From NCBI GenBank assembly GCA_951406725.2, contig OX597816.1:156736001-156800000 (forward strand): a DNA stretch of 64,000 nt, read 5' to 3'. The translations under genes were made by a program, and so were the position numbers. Shown in pieces: positions 17,537-62,592 of the stretch (position 1 is the first letter of the stretch; each line of letters begins with the position of its first letter). The notes below the pieces were generated by a model, which was not told the DNA's origin, did no database searches, and was given only the letters and a program-made list of their open reading frames with translations. The DNA comes from Octopus vulgaris (taxonomy: Eukaryota).

Positions 17537-17605
<69 letters not shown>

Positions 17606-17606
<1 letters not shown>

Positions 17607-18803
17607 GAAATACTGAAAGAACTCAAGAAAATCAACACAAATTTGTCAACTTTTTTGAACAAATTCGACTCGACACTTCAACCCAATCGAGAGAACAATG
17701 AAGAAACAGATACGAAAAATACAACCTCCGAAATTGTCGAAAACCTTGGAAACTTATGCGAAACAATTAGAACATGTTTCTCTAACAACGCTAACCAAGG
17801 ACCTCCAAACGCGTCAATATATGGGATCAATACTCTAACAACATACCAAATGAAACACCACATAATACCACAATGGAACAAATCACTCAGAGATAGAAAG
17901 TTCGCCTTTTGGAAGATGATCCAAAACAACAACAACGCGGATATATACGAAAAATGGCTCAACCGGACCCCGTTAATCCTCCCACGTAAATTCCAGTTCA
18001 AAGCTATTACAGAAGAACCTGAAACACAAAGACACCTCAGGGAGAGAATGGCACTGGAAAAAATGAAAATGGAAATAGAACTTCTGAAATTGAGGGCCCA
18101 AACGAATGAGGATAAAATAAAATCCACCGATGAAGATATCAACGAAGAAATTCGCAAAATGACCCAAGGCCCAGATCAAGAGAAGTTCTCCAAACTATGG
18201 AAAGAGGACTGTGAAAAAGAAGAACTAAAATCCCTCCAACGCTGGGAGAAAAGCGCCACTTGGTTCTCAGACTATGAAGCCGTCTTTCAAACAGAGCACG
18301 CCTCCAACAACCCTTTCCAGAAAATAAGAAAACCAAAACAACACCCAAACACCGATACACACCTGTCTAAAAATCGGAACCTTCACTACTATCAAAAAAA
18401 GAATACAGGACCTAACCCTAACTCTGTAAGCAGCCAGCGATACAATATCAGGAATACCCCCACTTCAAGCAGAGAAAGGATAAATCAACACCCACAGCAT
18501 AGACACTGCAACCTCATCCCCACCCAAAGGAGTTACCAACGAAATCTTCGTCCCATTAACCGGTTAAACAACCATGCACAACAAACCCACACCACTTGCA
18601 ATGATTACCAACGAAGGCCTCCTAGAACACCACACCCGAATATGGGATATCGGGATGCTCTCCTCAATACTGCTCCAAGAACACACACCATAAATCACAA
18701 CAGGAGACCCCTAATCAACAAAGAACAACTATATACTAGCTACCGTCCCAACCACCGCATTCATTTTTTAGACCCAATACGCAAACACAGAGACACAAGA
18801 TAG
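17606..18803 (+). CDS. PLE ORF1 (predicted coiled-coil, then low-complexity N/R/H/P-rich region); 5' end lost in microsatellite
   Basis: About 400 open codons running out of the TA/TG tract; heptad-like ERMALEKMKMEIELLKLRAQTNEDKIK; A/C-rich strand bias continuous with the RT ORF; ends ...HFLDPIRKHRDTR*. Confidence 0.7.
18764..18770 (+). promoter_or_regulatory. Candidate -1 ribosomal frameshift slippery heptamer T TTT TTA
   Basis: Correctly phased X XXY YYZ in ORF1 (cat ttt tta), inside the 18740-18803 overlap with the -1 frame RT ORF. Confidence 0.6.
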
Positions 18804-21094
18804 CACCAAACAAGCAGGAGGAACCAAAAGTAATAAAAATTATTAATCTAACTCACAAGGAACTAACAGCAAACCAAATAAACATACTTTCCAAAGGACT
18901 CAAGTTTACACCCACCCCACAACACCCCAACTACAATGAAATGAAAGAAGACATCGCAGAATTCTGCAGAAAATTAAGACTTACTGAGGAGCTATACGAT
19001 AAATACAACGAGGACGAATCGTTAGCCAGAAATAGGAGTAACTACACCCCCTCGAAAGGTAAGAATAAAACACTTGATGATTTCTGTGACCACATATCAA
19101 ATTATCCATATCAACATATGCACAAACAAAAACACAAACCAAACTTCAGCAAAAAAGAATGGGCTGAGTTGAACAAATTAAAACTAGATAAAACAATAAC
19201 AATCAAAGAGGCCGATAAAGGGAGTGCTGTTGTCTTAATGGATACGACATTTTACATAACTTTGGTACTTTCTATGCTGGAAGACACAACATACTATGAA
19301 AAGGCACAAAACTACAGTCAACAAAAAATAATGAGGGAACTAAAATCCATATTAAACCCATACAAAGCAGGGCTCACCGACAAAGAATATGATTATATGA
19401 CCAATTTCACAAGTAAAACTAGCCAATTCTACGGTATACCTAAGATCCACAAAAGTGAAAAAATAAGCAACGCATGCAAGATAGCTACAGACAAAATAAT
19501 TAAAGTCCCTAATCCTAATGACCTCAAATTGAGACCCATAATAGCAGGTCCCGCATGCGAAACCCACCGCCTCAGTAACTTTTTAGACACCCTGTTAAAA
19601 CCACTCCTCAAACATGTCAAAAGCTATATAAGGGACGACTTAGATATGCTCAATCACCTACCGAATACTATAAACAAAAACACCATACTGGTATCCTTCG
19701 ATGTAGTCAACCTCTACTCCAATATCCCCCACAACCTAGGACTAGAGGCAATCCAATTCTGGCTAGAGAATCACGCCAACGAACTACCACACCGCATCAA
19801 AAAAGAATTTGTGATAGAAGGGGTTAAATTCATCCTGGAAAATAACTTCTTCGCCTTCAATGACAACTTCTACCGACAAAAATCGGGGACTGCCATGGGT
19901 ACACGAATGGCCCCCTCCTTTGCCAACCTAGTCATAGGATACCTAGAGATCAGTCTGTATCGTAAGGTTCTAGAAAGATATGGCAGCCCTTTCTCTATCT
20001 ACATAGAAAACAACTGGAAGAGATATCTAGATGACTGTTTCATCCTTTGGCATAAAAATATAGAAAAACTCATAGAATTCCAGAAAATTTTAAACGGACT
20101 GGACGTAAACATCCAATTCACGATGGAATATAGCCAACAACAACTCCCCTTCCTCGATATCCTCATTAAGAAAGCTAATAATATAATAGAAACAGACATA
20201 TACTATAAGCCTACAGACTCTAAGCAATATCTTCCATTCAATTCATGCCACCCCAGACACACCAGGATGAATATCCCCTTCAATCTAGCAAAGAGGATAT
20301 GCACTATAGTCTCTAACGCAAACACCAGAGACACACGACTACAAGAACTAAAAGACACCCTAATCACCAGGAACTATCCACCTTCACTTATTGACAAGTG
20401 CATTCAACGTGCCCTTCAACTTAACATCAAGGAACTGAGACATCCCAAATCCAAGAAAAACTTACAACCAAAAGCCTTACCATACATCTCCACACACAAC
20501 CCTCTCAATAACGAAGCCTTCGACACCATCCTCCACAACATACCCCTCCTAAAAAAAGACCACAGAATGAACACAATCCTCCAAACACACACGATCATAA
20601 AAAGCAAAAGACAGCCTAGATCCATGAAAAGTCTCCTTACACAAGCCCGAATTCACTCTTCAACACAGAAGCCGACAGTAAAAAAATGTGGAAGACCCAA
20701 TTGCGGGATATGCGACTATCTTATTGAGGGATCAGAGTTCTCCTTCAAACAGGGACAACGGTTTACAGTGAAAAGCAACTTCACATGTGCTTCGGAGAAC
20801 CTAATATACTCACTAACCTGCTCCGGGTGTCAAGAGCAGTACATAGGCCAAACAAAAAATGGTTTGCGTAAACGAATGGCCCTGCACAGATCCCAGATAA
20901 AAATTCCCCAAAACAGAAAAATAGCTTTTAGCCAACACATAGATACTTGCGCCAACAAAAAAACACCAAACTTCAGAATTTTCCCCCTCTACCAATTTAG
21001 GGACGATACAACCTCGAGACAACGAATAAGTAAAGAAAATCTCTTTATTACAAAATACAAGCCACTTCTTAACGGGTCTACGACAAACAATTAA
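18770..21094 (+). CDS. PLE reverse transcriptase + GIY-YIG endonuclease (first ATG 18941; conserved coding starts upstream of it)
   Basis: IINLT..LSKGLKFTPTP (before the ATG), KEADKG, FYGIPKIHK, LRPII, SFDVVNLYSNIP, GTAMG, RYLDD, LPFLDI, YYKPTD..YL...SCHP, Zn-knuckle CGRPNCGIC, NLIY-SLTCSGC-QEQYIGQT, R..LH...QH, KE...I..YKP.LN. Confidence 0.95.
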   Translation, partial: RPNTQTQRHKIAPNKQEEPKVIKIINLTHKELTANQINILSKGLKFTPTPQHPNYNEMKEDIAEFCRKLRLTEELYDKYNEDESLARNRSNYTPSKGKNKTLDDFCDHISNYPYQHMHKQKHKPNFSKKEWAELNKLKLDKTITIKEADKGSAVVLMDTTFYITLVLSMLEDTTYYEKAQNYSQQKIMRELKSILNPYKAGLTDKEYDYMTNFTSKTSQFYGIPKIHKSEKISNACKIATDKIIKVPNPNDLKLRPIIAGPACETHRLSNFLDTLLKPLLKHVKSYIRDDLDMLNHLPNTINKNTILVSFDVVNLYSNIPHNLGLEAIQFWLENHANELPHRIKKEFVIEGVKFILENNFFAFNDNFYRQKSGTAMGTRMAPSFANLVIGYLEISLYRKVLERYGSPFSIYIENNWKRYLDDCFILWHKNIEKLIEFQKILNGLDVNIQFTMEYSQQQLPFLDILIKKANNIIETDIYYKPTDSKQYLPFNSCHPRHTRMNIPFNLAKRICTIVSNANTRDTRLQELKDTLITRNYPPSLIDKCIQRALQLNIKELRHPKSKKNLQPKALPYISTHNPLNNEAFDTILHNIPLLKKDHRMNTILQTHTIIKSKRQPRSMKSLLTQARIHSSTQKPTVKKCGRPNCGICDYLIEGSEFSFKQGQRFTVKSNFTCASENLIYSLTCSGCQEQYIGQTKNGLRKRMALHRSQIKIPQNRKIAFSQHIDTCANKKTPNFRIFPLYQFRDDTTSRQRISKENLFITKYKPLLNGSTTNN

Positions 21095-21224
21095 TATACC
21101 TCAACTTTAGAATAAAAGAAAAATATATATACACACACAAATATTACACTCCATAGAATCCATTACTAATCAGCCCCTTCATAGCTATATTTACACCCAT
21201 TCATATTCTCCCTTCTCTGTTTTT

Positions 21225-21261
<37 letters not shown>

Positions 21262-21873
21262 TCTTCTTCATCATCATTATCATCATCATCGTCGTCATCA
21301 TCATCACCACCATCATCACCACCATCTTCTCCTTCTCCTCCTCCTTCTTCTTCTTCTTCTTCTTCTTCTTCTTCATCATCATCGTTATCATCATCATCGT
21401 CGTCATAATCATCACCACCACCACCATCATCGTCATCTTCTCCTTCTCCTTCTCCTTCTCCTTCTTCTTCTTCTTCTTCTTCTTCTTCTTCTTCTTCTTC
21501 TTCTTCTTCTTCTACTTCTCCACCCCCTACCCCTTAACTTTGTCACTAATGTTTTTTAGTATAACACCTACGCTAATTCTATAAACAAGCCTGTCAATAT
21601 AAATATTCTCCTGAATTGAACTGAGACTGCCAGCCGCCACTGACCATTCAAAATACGACCATCAGGGCACTCCCAGATTCTCCCACCCCCTTTCCTCACC
21701 AGCCCTCTTCCTCTACTACCCTACCAAGAACTCACAACGACCTCGAACACACAAGTGCAAACAAGGGAGTCAGAGAAAGGCAGAATGCCACTTATATCTG
21801 AACACTACTATAGAAATATTCCTTTAAAAAAACTTTTCTTCTAATTTTTCTAAATTTAATTATTTAATCGTTA

Positions 21874-21911
21874 CAGTTGAAAGGGTCTCAAAATGACCGA
21901 AACCGGTACTG
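21874..21911 (+). ncRNA. Minimal type-I hammerhead ribozyme in the PLE 3' terminal region (U3-A8 variant)
   Basis: CAG-TTGAAAG-GGTC-tcaaaat-GACC-GAAA-CCGG-TA-CTG; palindromic stem III ACCGGT; position 9 is G rather than A. Confidence 0.7.
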
Positions 21912-21960: not shown

Positions 21961-21999
<39 letters not shown>

Positions 22000-41110: not shown

Positions 41111-41618
41111 ATAACCAAAATGTAAGAAACAAGAATGGATCCGGTAATTTAGTACAATTTTTTCATACTATAACAATTTATTAAAGCTGCAAATATTACA
41201 ACAAATATAATATGTCAAGTAATCTTCAGCTAATTCCATATACGTTTTCCAATAATGTAAAGTTCTCAAATCAATTAGTAACATCTTAGAGAGTGTAAAT
41301 ATACCGATAAAGTTGTAGATGTTTCAGGAACTTGAAGTAAGATGCCAGGCAAACCAAGATTGAGTTCATATATGCCTGGCATCTTACTTCAAATTTCTGA
41401 AACTCACATCTACAACTTTATCGGTATATTTACACTCTCTAAGATGTTACTAATTGATTTGAGAACTTTACATTATTGGAAAACCGATATGAAATTAGCT
41501 GAAGATTACTTGACATATTATATTTGCTGTAATATTTGCAGCTTTAATAAATTGTTATAGTACGAAACAATTGTACTAAATTACCGGATCCATTCTTGTT
41601 GCTTATTTTTTTGGTTAT
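41111..41618. repeat. Long inverted repeat: ~240-bp arms (41111-41351 / 41373-41618), 21-nt spacer, between (TA)n tracts
   Basis: Arms are near-perfect reverse complements over their whole length. Confidence 0.93.
41495..41579 (+). ncRNA. Type-I hammerhead ribozyme in the right arm of the inverted repeat (mutated mirror copy on minus strand in the left arm)
   Basis: TTAG-CTGAAGA-tTACT...AGTAc-GAAA-CAATTG-TA-CTAA; palindromic ACAATTGT; GUA triplet. Confidence 0.75.
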
Positions 41619-42283: not shown

Positions 42284-42350
<67 letters not shown>

Positions 42351-42353
<3 letters not shown>

Positions 42354-42760
42354 CGCAGGAGTGGCTGTGTGTTAAGTAGCTTGCTTACGAACAACATGGT
42401 TCCGGGTTCAGTCACACTGCGTGGCACCTTGGGTAAGTGTCTTCTACTATAGCCTCGGGCCGACCAAAGCCTTGTGAGTGGATTTGGTAGACGGAAACTG
42501 AAAGAAGCCCGTCGTATATATGTATATATATATGTGTGTATGTGCGTGTTTGTGTGTCTGTGTTTGTCCCCTTCAACATCGCTTGACAACCGATGCTGGT
42601 GTGTATATGCTCTCGTAACCTAGCGGTTCGGCAAAAAGAGACCGATAAAATAATTACTAGGCTTACAAAGAATAAGTCCTGGAGTAGATTTGATCGACTA
42701 AAGGCGGTGCTCCATCATGGCCACAGTCACATGACTGAAACAAGTAAAAGAGTAAAAGAG
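42351..42760 (+). mobile_element. tRNA-derived SINE, family B, full length
   Basis: A box TGGCTGTGTG, B box GGTTCAGTC, CACCTTGGGTAAGT, internal TA/TG tract, (GTAAAAGA)n tail; many copies in the window. Confidence 0.88.
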
Positions 42761-43226
42761 TATATATATATATATACTGAGCTGTCGACTCACAAGGCTC
42801 TTTATTCTCAATAAAAGTCTTCTAGCCTTAGATCTGTTGTTGATGATAAGAAGGTAGGTAAAAAAGTAAGAAATGAATTACACACCAATGACCTCCAACC
42901 GTGTTCCATGTCACTCCAGAATTGTAGTTATTCTTCTCTTAGCAAATTCTCGCTGCAATAGTGGTATCATGAAATTCTTTCATTCTCTAACTCTGATAAA
43001 ATATTTGAGAAAAATTATATTAATATATCTTTGATGAAAATCCATATTTCTCGCAACTGAAGATGGCATTTTATTTAAATTGATGTAATTCTTGCATTGT
43101 TCAATTAAATGGAGCTGCTTGAAACTGTCGTATTGCACTAACACTTGGCATCAGGTTACGTTTTTGATTATATATATATATATATGTGTGTGTGAATGTG
43201 TGTGTATATATATATATATATATATA

Positions 43227-43657
43227 GAAAATAGTAAAAAGTGAAAAAACTACAGAAGGCTTGTTTTAAAAGGTTAAAAAATATATATTTGAGTCAATAT
43301 GTCTGAAGAATGTTATAAATATTTTTCATACAATGACATAGTTTTAGAAGAAATGACCGGTTTCGCGTTCAGCTTTTCAAATTTCTTACATCGTTATGTT
43401 TACGTTGAGTAGAGATCCAGATAAAGGGAGGTAATAAGTGATTTCTTCCGGTTTAAGGGAGATATTCGCTTAAAATTTCTTGCCTTTCTTTTGGACTGAG
43501 TTTCTCTGTATAAGTATGTTGAAATGGTTAAGTTTGGGCTTGTATTTTTCAAATATATATTTTTTAACCTTTTAAAACAAGCCTTCTGTAGTTTTTTCAC
43601 TTTTTACTATTTTCTATATATTCAACCACGTGCTTTCACACACCAACTTTCTCACCT
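43227..43657 (-). mobile_element. PLE-derived mini-element with inverted terminal copy
   Basis: 66-bp perfect inverted repeats 43227-43292 / 43549-43614; minus strand encodes IFEKYKPKLNH, then 3' UTR and HHR; (TA)n on both sides; homologous to 12185-12641. Confidence 0.8.
43348..43387 (-). ncRNA. Minimal type-I hammerhead ribozyme, U3-A8 variant
   Basis: AAGAAAT-TTGAAAA-GC-tgaac-GC-GAAA-CCGG-TC-ATTTCTT: perfect 7-bp stem I, GUC triplet, palindromic ACCGGT. Confidence 0.85.
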
Positions 43658-44081
43658 ATATATATATATATATATACGTATACATACACACACACACACA
43701 CACATATGTATGAGAGTGAGTATGGAGGGATGATCTATCCGGGCGGATACCGTATTTGCCCTCAGTTAAGTTCCAGTTAACGGCTAACAACAACGATCCT
43801 TACCTAACGTCTATATATTTATTCTTCCGAAGGGTAATTCTATGTACTGTTCGCTGGACAGTAAAACTTGTCTGTAATATATAATACGATCAGACCTTCA
43901 AGAGATATATACATAATTCAAGATAGGCAACGCTCCAGCAATATTTGAGCTTGATATAACGAATAGATAAAATAACCTAAACATAAAAATATTTAATAAC
44001 ATCATTAATAAAAACAAAACAAATACTTTACCCAATATATAACACAATTCATGATCAGCCCAGGCAAAAAATGAATTTATA

Positions 44082-44305
44082 CAGGTGTTGGACAAAATAA
44101 TGGTTACACCTAGGATATTAGCATCATAATTTTGAAATATCTATAAAACCGTCAAAACATGTTTATTATTTTGTTTGTTTTTTTTAATTTATTATTAGTG
44201 TTGATTAATATGTTACGTTAAAATTGCTGTTTCCTTTCAGATATCATCAGAAAAAGGTAGTTAAAATTCATTAAAATGACATATCTATCGGACTTTCAAC
44301 GAGTG
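44082..44305 (+). mobile_element. 5' fragment of the same Tc1 family as 30632-31904
   Basis: TA-CAGGTGTTGGACAAAATAATGG, shared leader and first transposase codons (ATGACATATCTATCGGACTTTCAACGA). Confidence 0.85.
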
Positions 44306-44324
44306 TTATTTCTTATGTATACAT

Positions 44325-44737
44325 CTCTTTTACTCTTTTACTCTTTTACTTGTTTCAGTCATTTGACTGCGGCCATGCTGGAGCACCGCCTTTAGTCGAG
44401 CAAGTCGACCCCGGAACTTATTCTTTGTAAGCCCAGTACTTATTCTATCGGTCTCTTTTGCCGAACCGCTAATGGCGGGGACGTAAACACACCAGCATCG
44501 GTTGTCAAGCAATGCTAGAGGGACAAACACAGACACACAAACACACACACGCATATATATATATACATAAATACGACAGGCTTCTTTCAGTTTCTGTCTA
44601 CCAAATCCACTCACAAGGCATTGGTCGACCCGGGGCTATAGCAGAAGACACTTGCCCAAGTTGCCACGCAGTGGGACTGAACCCGGAACCATGTGGTTGG
44701 TTAGCAAGCTACTTACCACACAGCCACTCCTGCGCCT
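44325..44737 (-). mobile_element. SINE family B, full length
   Basis: Reverse complement of 42351-42760; flanking direct repeat TATGTATACATCT. Confidence 0.88.
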
Positions 44738-47016
44738 GTATATGTATACATCTGCATGTATACATATACATATATCTTGTATTTTGTACCCAAACTATTA
44801 TATACAATATATTTAATATATTTGCTATTTTTAATGAACCTAGTTCGTTTATCCGCACAATTGCCTCCCGTACCCGCTCAAATTAATCTCTCTTACAGCC
44901 TTTCTTTACCTGGTGGAATTGATCCCCTGTAAGTTTGAACATTTTTTGAGAACTACAGTCTTCTATACTGAGAATTTCTTGATCACATCTGCAGGCTTTA
45001 TATATGTGTGTAGGGGGTGTTTGTGTGTGTGAGTGTCCGTCAGTCCTTCAGTAACAACAAACTTTGATAAACTGAGTGGTTACTACTGAATTCATGCCAC
45101 GACACACAGAGAAGATGTTCTTGGAGCCGATACTTTGAACTTAAGAAGACATTATCTCTCGATGAAATACAACTAGAACTCATAATGCAGGGTAACGATT
45201 GCATGATCAAGTATCTGTACTACGTTGCGTAGAAACAATTGTAGTGATTGAAAAAATACATATAGAATCACACTTACACGCCTTTTGATTACTTGTACGC
45301 ATAGTTACTAATATATATATATATATATATAGGTACGCCGAAAGGTTACTATTCTAAGTGCAGAAAGCAGAAAAGATTTGAAGGACGTACAATTCCAGTT
45401 CCAATATCATGCTTGGAACATAGTCTTGTGTTTGTGATAGTATTATAATTGCGTTTGAAGGTATTACACGGCATGCGAAGTGGAACCTTCTGAGTATCAA
45501 GCTTAGTGAGTCAAGAAGGAACATTTTTTTAAATTTACTCAAATGGGCCCCAAAGAAATTAAACAGTCTTTTATATTGTGCAAAGGGTACGAATATTGGA
45601 ATAACTTTGGAAGCATATGTAAAACCCAATACTTGGATAGAGAGCTGATCTACATCAAAGAACCTTAATACAGAGATATTTGACGCTTCGATGTGCTCTT
45701 GTAACAGTATTGAAAGATATGATCTGGTCAGCATTTGTAAACTAGATCGAATAAAACAGAGGCACAGATAAAGGATTTGGAGGTGAGAACGAGATCAAGT
45801 GTCTTTGGCGGATCGACCGTTCTAGTAGTTATTACTTAGGCACAGTTATCTAGAATTTTGAATCCTAATGAATTTTTAGTCTTAGATTGAGCAACATCAA
45901 GTGGTATGTGAGCGATAGCGAGGAGAAATTCCCGTGATCACTTCTGACCAGATTATGTGAAATCCCTTTCCTTGATGTAGAAAAAAGATTATCAAGCCAC
46001 AACTTTGAACATTCAAGTGTTTATCCAGTTTATATTAATCATGCTGGAGTGGAGACAAACATATTTGTATTTCATAAATGATATTTTGAAAATATTAATT
46101 AATTAATTGAAAAGTCTGAATTAATCAAAGAATAAATTGCTATATTTATTCATTTTTATATTTAAATATAGACAAACAGAACGTATAGAGAAAAAATGTA
46201 TTGTGAAATAGAAGCTATATAATCTACGAGCATATTTCACTTCTAGGAATGAAATCAATATTTATAACTAAACCATTTCTGTCCCCATGTCGATTTATCC
46301 CCAAATTCTCACAAGATGTAGCGAGTATGTAAACGAAAATGCATTCTATAATTAGTCACTGTGTGTCGTGTGCTTCTTATGGAAACTGTTTTATCGGAAT
46401 TAATGTTTATTTCGGAAGCTCTCTATGTAAAAGACATAGTGGGGATGAAGAAGTTGGCTGTCATTAGATTATTATCCAGTTCAACTGAAGAGACAGATGT
46501 CATAGAAATTCAGCTTATTTTAAAGAATTCTTGCATTATTAGAACATAGGATTTGACAGCTACATTATATTCAAGAATTGTATGTTTGTTGCACTTCTTT
46601 TATATTTTTGAAAATTAAGCATTAGAAAACAGGACTCAAACTGAGTTGTTCGGCACGTATAACTAAATGTATAAAGGCGTGTTTCTTTGTATTAATATAT
46701 CTTTGAATAAACACATATTAATTCACATATATCTATCTATCAATCAATATGTTTATGGAAATGAAAAGTATGAATATTTATACACACTACAGCAGGTATT
46801 TACGAAAAATTGTGCTGTCAGTTGTGGACTTATGTATCCATCAGTTGGTGATTAACTCAATTGACTCGAGATAGAAAGCTGAATAGGTATTTTGGTCTCC
46901 ATGACTACCTTTAACCTATATTCATGCTTCAAAATGAAGCATCTACTGAAATGAATAATGTCCGACATCCCTCAATACAAATCCCTATTGGATGGATTCT
47001 GAGTCGTACTTAGCAC

Positions 47017-55989: not shown

Positions 55990-56868
55990 TGTACCAGAAA
56001 AATAAGATAAGATAGAAAATGCTAAAATGAACATTTTAGTACCGGTTTTAGACTTTTAGACTTTTCCAATTTGGAACAAAGCAAAAAATAAACAATCAAA
56101 TAGTGAAAAAATTTTAATGAAATCGTTTTTTAAAAATATATTCGCCGAGGAAGTAGTCGGTGAAGAAGAAGAAGAAGAAGAAGAAGAAGAAGAAGAAGAA
56201 AAAGAAGAAGAAGAAGAAGAAGAAGAAGAAGAAGAAGAAGAAGAAGAAGAAGAACAAGAAGAAGAAGAACAAGAAGAAGAACAAGAAGAAGAACAAGAAG
56301 AACAAGAAGAAGAAGAAGAAGAAGACGGGCGTAGTATTATACTAGTAGACTGTTCGTGGGATCTTCTTTAATGGTCAGTGATCTAAAAGTGACCCCTTGT
56401 GGTTGTAGCAGTAGTGAGTGGAATTCTTCTGAATAAATTCAAAAGTAGTCACTTTTCTGAATATATAGTTTTCAATATTTGCGTGGGTTTCAAGGCGACA
56501 TGCAGGCAGAAACGTTAGCACACCGAGTACAATGCTTAGCGGTATTTCCTCTGTTTTTATGTTATAAGTTCAAATTCTGGCGAGGTCGACTTTGCTTTTC
56601 GGGATCGATGAATTAAGTACTGGTTGCGTACTGGGGTCGATCTAATTGACTGACGCCCACCCCAAAAATTTCGGGCCTTTTGCCTAGAGTAGAAAAGAAC
56701 ATTTGCGTCGGTTTTATTCAAAGATCCTTGTAGTAATGTCATCTGTAGTGGAAGCATTCAAAATGTGGTTTATAGTTTGCGATAAAATATGATTCTTTGC
56801 TTATGCGCTGAATATAGGTTGCATTGCTTCTGAATTTATAGCGGGGGATGTGGAATTCTGAAGTTCGG
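55990..56868 (-). mobile_element. Decayed 3' end of a PLE related to the 17.6-kb element
   Basis: Minus strand PNFRI/ /YKFRSNATYIQRISKESYFIANYKPH (cf. PNFRIFPLYQFRDDTTSRQRISKENLFITKYKPL), (TTC)n UTR tract, eroded HHR and terminus CCGGTACTAAAATGTTCA...TTTTAGCATTTTCTAT as at 21903-21947. Confidence 0.8.
56491..56697 (+). mobile_element. SINE family A variant inserted in the PLE remnant
   Basis: GGCAGAAACGTTAGCAC...GAGGTCGACTTTGC; imperfect TSD AATATTTGCGTGGGTTT / AACATTTGCGTCGGTTT. Confidence 0.8.
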
Positions 56869-57220
56869 TTGAAGATTGCAGTGATGAGAAAAGTTTATTA
56901 GACAGGATGCATTCTAAGACTGAAATGTTGGTATACACAACATATGAATCGCATAATCGATTCACTGTGGGAGAAAATTGCCTTGAATATTAGGGCGGAA
57001 GAGTTTAAATAGGAGATTTAAAAAATAGGCTGGCTGCTAGTAGGAGATTTTCAGCTTGATAGCTAGTTTGAACCAAATCATTGTTCTCTATACCTTCTAT
57101 TTTGAAATACTTCAGGAAAAAGCTGTTTATCATTGAATATTTATGCACTGTGACTAAAGAAATTTAATGAAATGTGTTCATCTAGGATTGTGATTATATT
57201 TCGTTATGGTTGATGTCCGA

Positions 57221-60345: not shown

Positions 60346-62592
60346 TGTTTCTTTATTAGCCACACAGGGCTGCACACAGATAGAACAAATTACAAGGTAG
60401 AGCTTTTCTTTTGAAGGTTAAAAAAAAAAAAGGAAGGGGGAGTTTCGATCAAAAGGGATCGTAAAAGGAGAGAAAGAGGACAAAAAAAGGGGGAGAGGAA
60501 AAAAAATTGATCAATAGGGATCGTTATCACAGAAATGTCAATATGAAGTGTAAAGGGGAGGACAGGTGAGGTTTACCCGTGGAAAGAAAAGCCTACGGAA
60601 AAGACCACGGTAACCTCGGTCAATGAAGTCACATGTTATAATTCTTTTTTTTTTTTTTGCAAATAAGCAACTCTCTGTTTTCAATTTCTGGGTTCATAGG
60701 ATTCGTCATTCATACGTGTCATTCTTGCTACATTCACCCATCTTTTTTTAAAACATTCGCTAGACAAAACTTGCCTCTCTACTCTCACTTTCCTTTTCAA
60801 GTGGTACTTGAAGAAGTTGATGAGAGATTGACCAGACTGCAGTTCGGTCATGGAGACGAGCTGCGGGAAAGCGTGCCTCACAAACGGCGACCACACCTGT
60901 TCACCGCCGTCTACATAGAGCCAGAGATATCGCAGTCTCAGCGCGTGTCTGCGCATCATCAACCACGGCATGCCCAGCCCTCCATTTAACGGGTGTTGAC
61001 AGCAAATGGATCGCCTGACCATCGGGACGCATCCTCTCCACAAGAAGCGAAAGAGAATACGTTGTCCATAGGTCCCGGGCCGAAAGTCGTTTGAAACAGG
61101 CGGGTCAGGTATTCCTCGTCGACGCCCAGGTTTGCCCCGAGCTCGTCGTCGTACCTCCCCTCCACTAATCCCCTATAGAATGCTTTGGTTGTGTTGAAGT
61201 CACTCAAGGTCGACCCGGGACGGCAGAGTTGCTTGAGAGCAACGCGACACTCGCGGTGCTATTCGCCCTTCCTCGGCCTCTTTTTGATCCACGACTGTAG
61301 TTCGGTCATGGAGACGAGTTGCGGGTGTTGACAGCAAATGGATCGCCTGACCATCGGGACGCATCCTTTCCACAAGAAGCGGAAGAGGATGCGTTCTAGT
61401 TTGGTGATGGTAGGGTCGGGACAAGGTACGACGGTCAGGCGGTAGTAGATGATGGACGCGATGTACGCGTTCACCACCTCCGCCCGACCTTTTAGGGACA
61501 GTTTCCTCTCGGCCCATTGCTGGGCGAGAGTGACCACCCTACTCGTTATCTCGTTCCAGTTCTTCTCCATTTGGAGGTCCGGACCGAACCAGACCCCGAG
61601 CAACTCAACCGGGCCGTCTGTCCAGCGTCCCACGACGGAGGTACTGGTGGACGGCATGGGCTTGCTTCTCCAGGTGCCGAGCCGCAAGCCCACTGACTTT
61701 TCCCGGTTGATTTTTGCTCCTGTCACCGCTTCGTAGTCTTTCAGTGTCTCGCCGACCCGCTCGATGTGCTCGTGGCTTGACACTATGACGGTGACGTCGT
61801 CCGCGTATGCAGACACGCTCGTCCCGCATCCCAATTCTCGCGGGATGCCCCTTAGAGTCGCCAGCTTCCGCAGTAGTGGCTCAAGAGTCAATACGTATAG
61901 AAGCGCCGAGAGGGGGCATCCCTGACGGACCGAACGTGCAATGTCGAAAGGTCTCGATAGATGTCCATTTACGCGAATTACCGAACGGATGCCTCTGTAC
62001 AAGGCAGCTATCCAGCCGCGGAAGACGGGACCGAAACCAGCCGCTCTCAGGACTGCCTCCAAGTATCGATGGTCTACCCTATCAAAGGCTTTCGATTGAT
62101 CCAAGGTGATCAGGGCCCCACCCATGCCAGGTTCGTTAACTACCCTGTCTATGATGTAGCGCATCAGATGGAGGTTGTCATGGATGCTCCGGCCCGGCAC
62201 GGCACACGTTTGTGCGTTGTCGACCAGTTTCTCGATGACAAGCGCCAACCTCTTGGCTAACACCTTTGTCAAAATTTTCAGGTCTGCATTGAGCAGCGTG
62301 ATTGGTCTAAAGTTATCTATAATGTTTCCCTTGTTTGGATCTTTCTTCAGCAGAGTTACAGCTCCTCGACTCACAAAACCGGGTATGCTCCCGTTTTGCT
62401 GCCAGTTGCAGTATACCGCTGCCAAGACGTCTCCAAACAAGTCTGGCATACAATTGTAAAACTCGTAGGGTAGACCATCCAAACCCGGTGATTCGTCCCT
62501 CGAGCATTCTGCTATCGCTTCCTGCACTTCCGCCGCCGTGATGGCACCTTCGCAGCACCCTGCCTTTCTTGTCGAGAGTCGTGGCAGGCTAT
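60346..62592 (-). mobile_element. 5'-truncated Tx1/L1-clade LINE embedded in (GATA)n/(GACA)n
   Basis: GC-rich island; RT coding region, 3' UTR and AATAAAGAAACA end; tetranucleotide arrays at 60178-60345 and 62593-62747. Confidence 0.88.
61259..62592 (-). pseudogene. L1/Tx1-type reverse transcriptase domain (truncated ORF2)
   Basis: SPGLDGLPYEFY, FRPITLLNADLKIL, LDQSKAFDRVDH, VRQGCPLS, AYADD, GAKINREKS, LSLKGR; the ORF-track N-terminus (62593-62896) is microsatellite read-through. Confidence 0.9.

Follow-up and report, generated by a model that had tools for sequence, protein, structure and literature searches.

We consider a Penelope-like element (PLE) with an endonuclease (EN) that lies on the forward strand of Octopus vulgaris contig OX597816.1 (assembly GCA_951406725.2), within a window of 64,000 nucleotides (nt), positions 156,736,001 to 156,800,000, by which we mean the whole stretch analysed and in whose numbering all coordinates are given. 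The element has two overlapping open reading frames (ORFs), ORF1 and a reverse transcriptase (RT)-EN frame, and the RT is likely produced by a -1 ribosomal frameshift in the overlap, possibly stimulated by a ribosome that terminates at the ORF1 stop. We give this reading as a whole a probability of about 0.85. Its first part, that the RT is made by a -1 slip at the heptamer T TTT TTA, is very probable from the conserved features of the sequence. Its second part, that the slip is stimulated by a ribosome terminating 11 codons ahead and in the absence of an RNA structure, is proposed by analogy and falls a little short of an even chance. The features on which the argument depends are the following.

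17607 to 18803, forward strand: ORF1, with a helical core at about 17823 to 18296 and a disordered tail rich in N, R and Q; it ends in HFL, 10 residues and TAG
18737 to 18739, forward strand: TAG in the RT frame, the upstream limit of the overlap
18740 to 21094, forward strand: RT-EN frame, 784 codons open, with DKG, RVT_1, YLDD, a CX4CxxC linker and GIY-YIG
18764 to 18770, forward strand: T TTT TTA, a putative slippery heptamer that is in phase with ORF1
18771 to 18800, forward strand: unstructured spacer of 10 codons, conserved in length and not in sequence
18801 to 18804, forward strand: TAG that ends ORF1, with C as the next base; it stands 11 codons past the heptamer's A-site codon, and the leading ribosome is proposed to pause here
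18839 to 18919, forward strand: PLE N-terminal RT motif IINLT...LSKGLKFTPTP, 5' of the first RT-frame ATG (18941)

The overlap and its heptamer in related copies

A sequence-only reading of the window had proposed a gag-pol-like -1 frameshift, and frame analysis agrees with the particulars on which that proposal was built. The RT frame is open from 18740, directly after the TAG at 18737 to 18739, and is -1 relative to ORF1 over an overlap of 64 nt, in which the in-phase T TTT TTA is the sole XXXYYYZ. The distance from this heptamer to the start of the IINLT motif is 25 codons and to the first RT-frame ATG, which comes only at 18941, it is 59 codons; the conserved IINLT...GLKFTPTP does lie between the two. 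The probability of at least one such heptamer by chance is about 0.13 in the window's 19-codon overlap, which makes it weak evidence if taken alone.

The frame itself can be compared with contigs from four sequencing runs (of 24 listed) that were aligned to 17596-19500, all counts being among the contigs listed. Five of these, from three runs, span the site and have 0 gaps in 5/5; three are near-identical to the window, with 0, 1 and 9 differences that all lie outside 18737-18843, and the other two are at 87-89% identity. The run X1 is possibly the window's own source and so not independent, and as no run is on record as RNA, the contigs inform the frame and not expression or splicing. In the raw DNA of run X21 the element family is not present (2/30 bins).

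More distant copies are found by searching metagenomes with a pattern for the ORF1 core. This search gives seven loci, of which L005 is a false match and L001 and L002 lie on one contig, leaving five related copies in four families (L003 and L006 belong to the same family); the window and these five copies are the six loci referred to below. The same kind of search in viral and prokaryotic collections gives no matches. Two overlapping ORFs are present in all six loci, and in the related copies, whose RTs are 41-46% identical, the RT offset is -1 in 5/5. Their overlaps of 40-82 nt each contain exactly one in-phase heptamer, which is T TTT TTA in L001 and L004, T TTT TTG in L003 and L006, and T TTA AAC in L007, where it begins in the codon that directly follows the RT-frame stop. 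An RT-frame ATG upstream of the N-terminal motif (IxN[LM]) is absent in 6/6 loci. The chance of a heptamer is 0.03-0.19 per overlap, and the product over five loci (L006 left out) is 7e-6 if independence is assumed. Whether other copies keep the offset and the heptamer had been posed as a check, and both are kept in all five, with three heptamer types. The conserved offset, the heptamers and the missing early RT ATG together support a gag-pol-like -1 frameshift in a PLE that contains an EN.

The tails of the ORF1 homologues provide a wider sample, which is counted over all matches of at least 330 amino acids (aa; n=75). One alignment, A2, was picked by hand partly for visible FL tails, and its 90% conservation is not used. 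FL occurs within the last 45 aa in 63/75 homologues, compared with 4/75 and 6/75 in upstream control windows. The residue before FL is K, E, Q, M or W in 0/63 cases, though these five make up 21% of the tail residues; none of the five has a codon that ends in T. We therefore take the enrichment of FL with a T-compatible preceding residue as a protein-level shadow of N-NT TTT TTR.

Stop spacing, RNA structure and the trailing ribosome

The distance from the heptamer to the ORF1 stop is 30 nt in 5/6 loci, with L001 the exception at 36 nt. By contrast, the RT motif lies anywhere between 20 and 31 codons past the heptamer. With the heptamer's A-site codon as the starting point, the distance to the stop is 11 codons. 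The base that follows the stop (+4) is C in four of the six loci, namely the window, L003, L004 and L006, and A in the other two, L001 and L007. The same spacing is seen in the proteins, where the spacer can be read in the 66 of 75 that have xF[LF] within 60 residues of their C-terminus: it is exactly 10 residues in 21, 11 in 5, below 10 in none, and 12-41 in 40. Under a model with random stops, about 2 spacers of 10 would be expected and 21-34 shorter ones, or 3-5 spacers of 10 if a floor is set there. Among the shorter proteins of 250-329 aa the motif is present in 22/37, with a spacer of 10 in 4, of 11 in 1, and of 6 in 1 that is probably truncated. The 25 ten-residue spacers are mutually about 10% identical and range from acidic to basic, and in a quick maximum-likelihood tree of ORF1 they sit on deep branches of either half (29/88 rows).

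The sequence-only reading had looked to a stimulatory structure downstream, as in HIV-1. Folding found none, and it is the distance to the ORF1 stop that is conserved instead. The downstream fold in the window is not beyond its shuffles (z +0.84; also z +0.86 and +0.49), and none of the six loci gives a better fold than its shuffled versions, whether 50 or 80 nt are taken (z -1.4 to +1.75). A simple pseudoknot scan of the six loci is likewise not beyond shuffles (best 9/100). The folding covered 50-97 nt and the pseudoknot scan was crude, with long-range structures outside their scope. In the proteins, the first residue after FL is Gly in 21/39 long-spacer homologues versus 2/21 ten-spacer ones, and a Gly-rich start of the long-spacer homologues is expected if G-rich stems are used there.

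These distances can be combined with what has been reported for queued ribosomes. Human disome profiling describes queues at stop codons with a period of 11 codons (33 nt) and an enrichment of C at +4 (bioRxiv 710491), and in Escherichia coli reporters a -1 slip of the trailing ribosome is driven by one that stalls at UGA ahead of it, with a peak at 9 codons (PMC6815119). From the 11-codon spacing, the human stop queues and the E. coli collision slips we therefore infer that the terminating ribosome may be the obstacle. Most ribosomes would stop at 18801 and release the ORF1 protein, and a minority would slip at ...HFL and yield a fusion of ORF1, RT and EN, about 1,175 aa long (1,162 from 17607), in a gag-pol-like ratio. 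A ribosome paused on the weak-context stop UAG-C would be the obstacle, behind which the following ribosome would queue at one ribosome length, so placed that its P and A sites hold the slippery codons. The relatives with longer overlaps and Gly-rich, G-rich sequence after the site would use an RNA structure. A natural, selected, structure-free and collision-driven -1 frameshift in a large animal PLE family, with sister lineages that use G-rich structure, is thus offered as a tentative proposal, somewhat below even odds. If it is true, RT output would be tied to ribosome load and to the speed of termination.

An alternative that we regard as nearly an even bet keeps the -1 slip as real and has it driven by the heptamer alone, by a hidden RNA structure or by a protein-binding site. 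The longer spacers of most homologues and the limited reach of the folding and pseudoknot scans leave room for this account, in which the position of the stop could be set in other ways. The nearby stop may only clear ribosomes for the refolding of a structure, as in the SARS-CoV-2 model, where the stop position modulates frameshifting through refolding (PMC8168617). Such a model requires a structure, however, and predicts a stop that is as near as possible, not a floor followed by a sharp peak at 10. The stop could also be fixed by the 10-residue ORF1 tail, which is difficult to reconcile with spacers that share 10% identity and run from acidic to basic, or by a hydrophobic residue in the RT frame, where a TAA or TAG stop necessarily gives an NTA codon (L, I or V). 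At residue +11 of the longer spacers, residues with codons that can start with T number 11/58, against 7-11 at neighbouring positions, and a single clade accounts for 6 of the 11, all of them W, which does not favour a constraint of this kind.

Several observations weigh against the stop-spacing argument and, in part, against the frameshift itself. The homologues are related, so that P-values are overstated, and the tree is a quick one with weak deep nodes. Spacers are of at least 13 residues in 39/66 full-length homologues. Six near relatives (P0001-3, P0006, P0007 and P0013) have W at the position of the window's stop, +11, and extend to +20 or +26, with five of them ending at +20, which is the window's next in-frame stop; this W is either a true TGG or a TGA read as Trp by the gene caller. 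L004 has an 8-bp hairpin 13 nt past the site (-11.4 kcal/mol, z -0.88). The motif xF[LF] is absent in 9/75 homologues. Three of these (P0044, P0070 and P0012) show FR in place of FL at the slippery position of their C-termini, possibly a different slip signal, UUU-CGN, of +1 type. P0100 is a 609-aa in-frame fusion of ORF1 and RT in which most of the RT core is deleted, and it is probably a decayed copy. Four of the five related copies carry other frame breaks in the RT, and the comparison at the DNA level covers six loci. Collisions in eukaryotes usually lead to quality control or to +1 slips, and the mRNA of a retroelement may carry too few ribosomes to queue. The disome study also gives a 30-nt period, which would place the trailing ribosome one codon further on (bioRxiv 710491).

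Other conceivable routes to the reverse transcriptase

The same bases could be read by the spliceosome instead, with TTTTTTAG as a splice acceptor, an upstream exon that supplies the start, and ORF1 as intronic sequence. TTTTTAG is present in the window, L001 and L004, a residue whose codon starts with G follows FL in 46/63 tails, and PLEs are known to retain introns (PMC8557442). However, there is no AG at the site in L003 and L006 (T TTT TTG TGG) or in L007 (T TTA AAC), and in 10/63 tails the residue after FL is incompatible with an AG acceptor. An acceptor, moreover, needs neither a fixed ORF1 phase, nor a T in the preceding codon, nor a constant -1 offset, and all three are kept. Because the AG is missing in these three copies, the splice-acceptor reading is rejected for the family; we consider it very improbable overall. 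The sequence-only reading had named this alternative, and the DNA and the tails of the relatives go against it and leave the frameshift standing.

The RT could also have a start of its own near the ORF1 stop, at an ATG or a near-cognate codon reached by leaky scanning or re-initiation. If the W at +11 in the six relatives is TGG after an A, there is an RT-frame ATG at that place, and the window has an ATA in good context at 18800. The RT-frame codons over the stop are, however, ATA, CTA, GTA, GTA, CTA and GTA in the six loci, and such a start leaves the heptamers unexplained, so that only a slight chance is given to it. As a separate candidate, a decayed RT ATG at 18800 was considered and rejected, the ATA/TAG being common to the three close contigs.

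A private indel or assembly error that split one ORF, which the homopolymer T run and the in-frame form seen in P0100 would allow, is hardly credible: the 5/5 listed contigs without a gap and the -1 offset in 5/5 related copies contradict the private 1-nt indel raised at the outset, and the 150 ORF1 matches listed are all of at most 609 aa.

The element and its relation to known systems

The RT frame carries the markers of a PLE-type RT, namely an N-terminal GLKF (GxKF), DKG and YLDD. RVT_1, which includes the YLDD, is placed at about 19526-20089 (Pfam E 3.5e-8), and GIY-YIG at about 20801-21064 with E 3.8e-4 and 21.1 bits, slightly below the cut-off of 22.6. The latter has an internal CxxC between its motifs (LIY..TCSGC..YIG), and upstream of it there is a C-X4-C-X2-C linker at 20687-20713 (residues 650-658). 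The element is probably a Neptune-like PLE, an assignment made by motifs only.

ORF1 encodes about 400 aa. It had been described as a coiled-coil protein, of which the helical part holds: the AlphaFold prediction has three long helices, which span residues 73-119, 139-185 and 189-230, mostly with a predicted local distance difference test score >90, and after them a disordered tail. The coiled coil itself is only partly shown, and a fold match is absent at E<=0.001 in the PDB and viral structures searched. Pfam gives no significant match and Atlas no usable one. ORF1 homologues nevertheless form 536 clusters at E<=0.001, and dedicated searches for longer fused ORF1-RT forms found none, which is weak evidence. 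ORF1 thus appears to be an undescribed family that is widespread among EN-containing PLEs.

The remaining features mark the ends of the element.

17537 to 17606, strand not assigned: (TG)n/(TA)n microsatellite that adjoins the insertion on its 5' side
21874 to 21911, forward strand: candidate minimal hammerhead-ribozyme-like motif, with a U3/A8-type core, a 4-bp helix II and a palindromic CCGG
21966 to 21999, strand not assigned: (TA)n microsatellite that adjoins the insertion on its 3' side

Truncation at 17606/7 has cost the window copy its 5' end, with about 13 ORF1 codons (the homologue P0001 has 13 extra N-terminal residues), and contigs of runs X1 and X4 carry loose ends, 82-95 nt long, ahead of 17606. 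A TA-to-TG change in the flanking microsatellite creates an ATG at 17574-17576 in frame with the truncated ORF1, probably by chance. The candidate hammerhead was found by pattern and by eye and has an unusual G at position 9; its U3/A8-type core is as in a published PLE variant (PMC4209133). Related motifs with a standard core and the same palindromic CCGG are present in L001, L003 and L004. An Rfam scan left the hammerhead unmatched and gave microsatellite noise only. L001 and L003 have direct repeats with the ribozyme motif on both sides, the upstream repeat being absent from the truncated window copy. In L001 (3649-3893) and at both ends of L003 the units stand head to tail, with about 245 nt from the RT stop to the next ORF1 start; this gap contains TGACGTC repeats and the ribozyme motif. 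The 3' untranslated region of the window element holds TCT/CAT trinucleotide arrays (21200-21520).

Elsewhere in the window, a fragment at 56766-56882 on the reverse strand resembles an EN C-terminus, to which 40 aa of it align at 50% identity (E 1e-4), and is another decayed PLE piece. There are also long inverted repeats at 41117-41611 (206-nt arms, 96%) and 42313-44775 (249-nt arms, 88%), and a GC-rich island at 61001-62000 (57% versus about 34% elsewhere).

In the eukaryotic -1 frameshift signals known to us, the obstacle is an RNA structure or a bound protein. A natural frameshift stimulated by a terminating ribosome was not found in the literature searched, where such an effect is described for engineered bacterial reporters only. 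The conserved spacing of the stop at one ribosome length, with no RNA structure detected, is the surprising part of the finding. Dozens of natural sequences keep the spacing and not the sequence, which makes the collision idea testable by a simple reporter series and suggests a rule for genome scans, a heptamer that is followed at 30 nt by a stop. Should the collision idea prove wrong, a gag-pol-like layout would still be widespread in EN-containing PLEs that reviews call single-ORF, and an RT annotation begun at the first ATG loses the N-terminal motifs. A 2023 review lists ribosome collisions as an emerging influence on frameshifting (PMC7618472).

The EN-containing PLEs Neptune and Nematis of Craig et al. 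2021 (PMC8557442) share with the element the GxKF, the DKG, a CX2-5CxxC linker, a C-terminal GIY-YIG and a (TA)n target, as well as, putatively, a 3' hammerhead-like motif; terminal direct repeats are seen in L001 and L003. The canonical EN-containing PLE is described as a single ORF (PMC8557442, PMC6431247), whereas the element here has a separate 400-aa ORF1 that overlaps the RT in -1. Where these two reviews speak of two-ORF PLEs, they are EN-deficient ones. According to the legend to Fig. 1 of Craig et al., a frameshift with a pseudoknot can set ORF1 apart (PMC8557442). For a killifish Neptune two ORFs are described, in an account that mentions no frameshift (PMC12602865), and ORF1 esterases have been reported in PLEs (PMC3905857). 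Neither 'Penelope' nor 'Athena' occurs in the opening 300,000 characters of the 2016 review by Atkins (PMC5009743). The two-ORF frameshift layout in EN-containing PLEs may be partly known already.

With the Athena/Terminon elements there is a likeness in the upstream helical or coiled-coil ORF and in an RT reached by frameshift. The element differs from these EN-deficient PLEs (PMC6431247) by its GIY-YIG, by insertion at (TA)n and not at telomeres, and in that no pseudoknot is found. The heptamers U UUU UUA of HIV-1 gag-pol and U UUA AAC of coronavirus 1a/1b occur here in the same phase (PMC7618472, PMC8168617, PMC4373837), and the logic of a structural ORF that leads into a polymerase is common to these viruses and the element. 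Unlike in the viruses, no stem-loop or pseudoknot is found 5-9 nt downstream, and it is the 30 nt to the 0-frame stop that are conserved. The collision reporters of Smith et al. 2019 (PMC6815119) are synthetic and bacterial with a distance of 9 codons, whereas the case here would be natural, eukaryotic and under selection, with 11 codons. The arrangement is nonetheless alike in both, with a heptamer placed one ribosome length before a stop that is slow in the reporters and would be slow here, and with no RNA structure.

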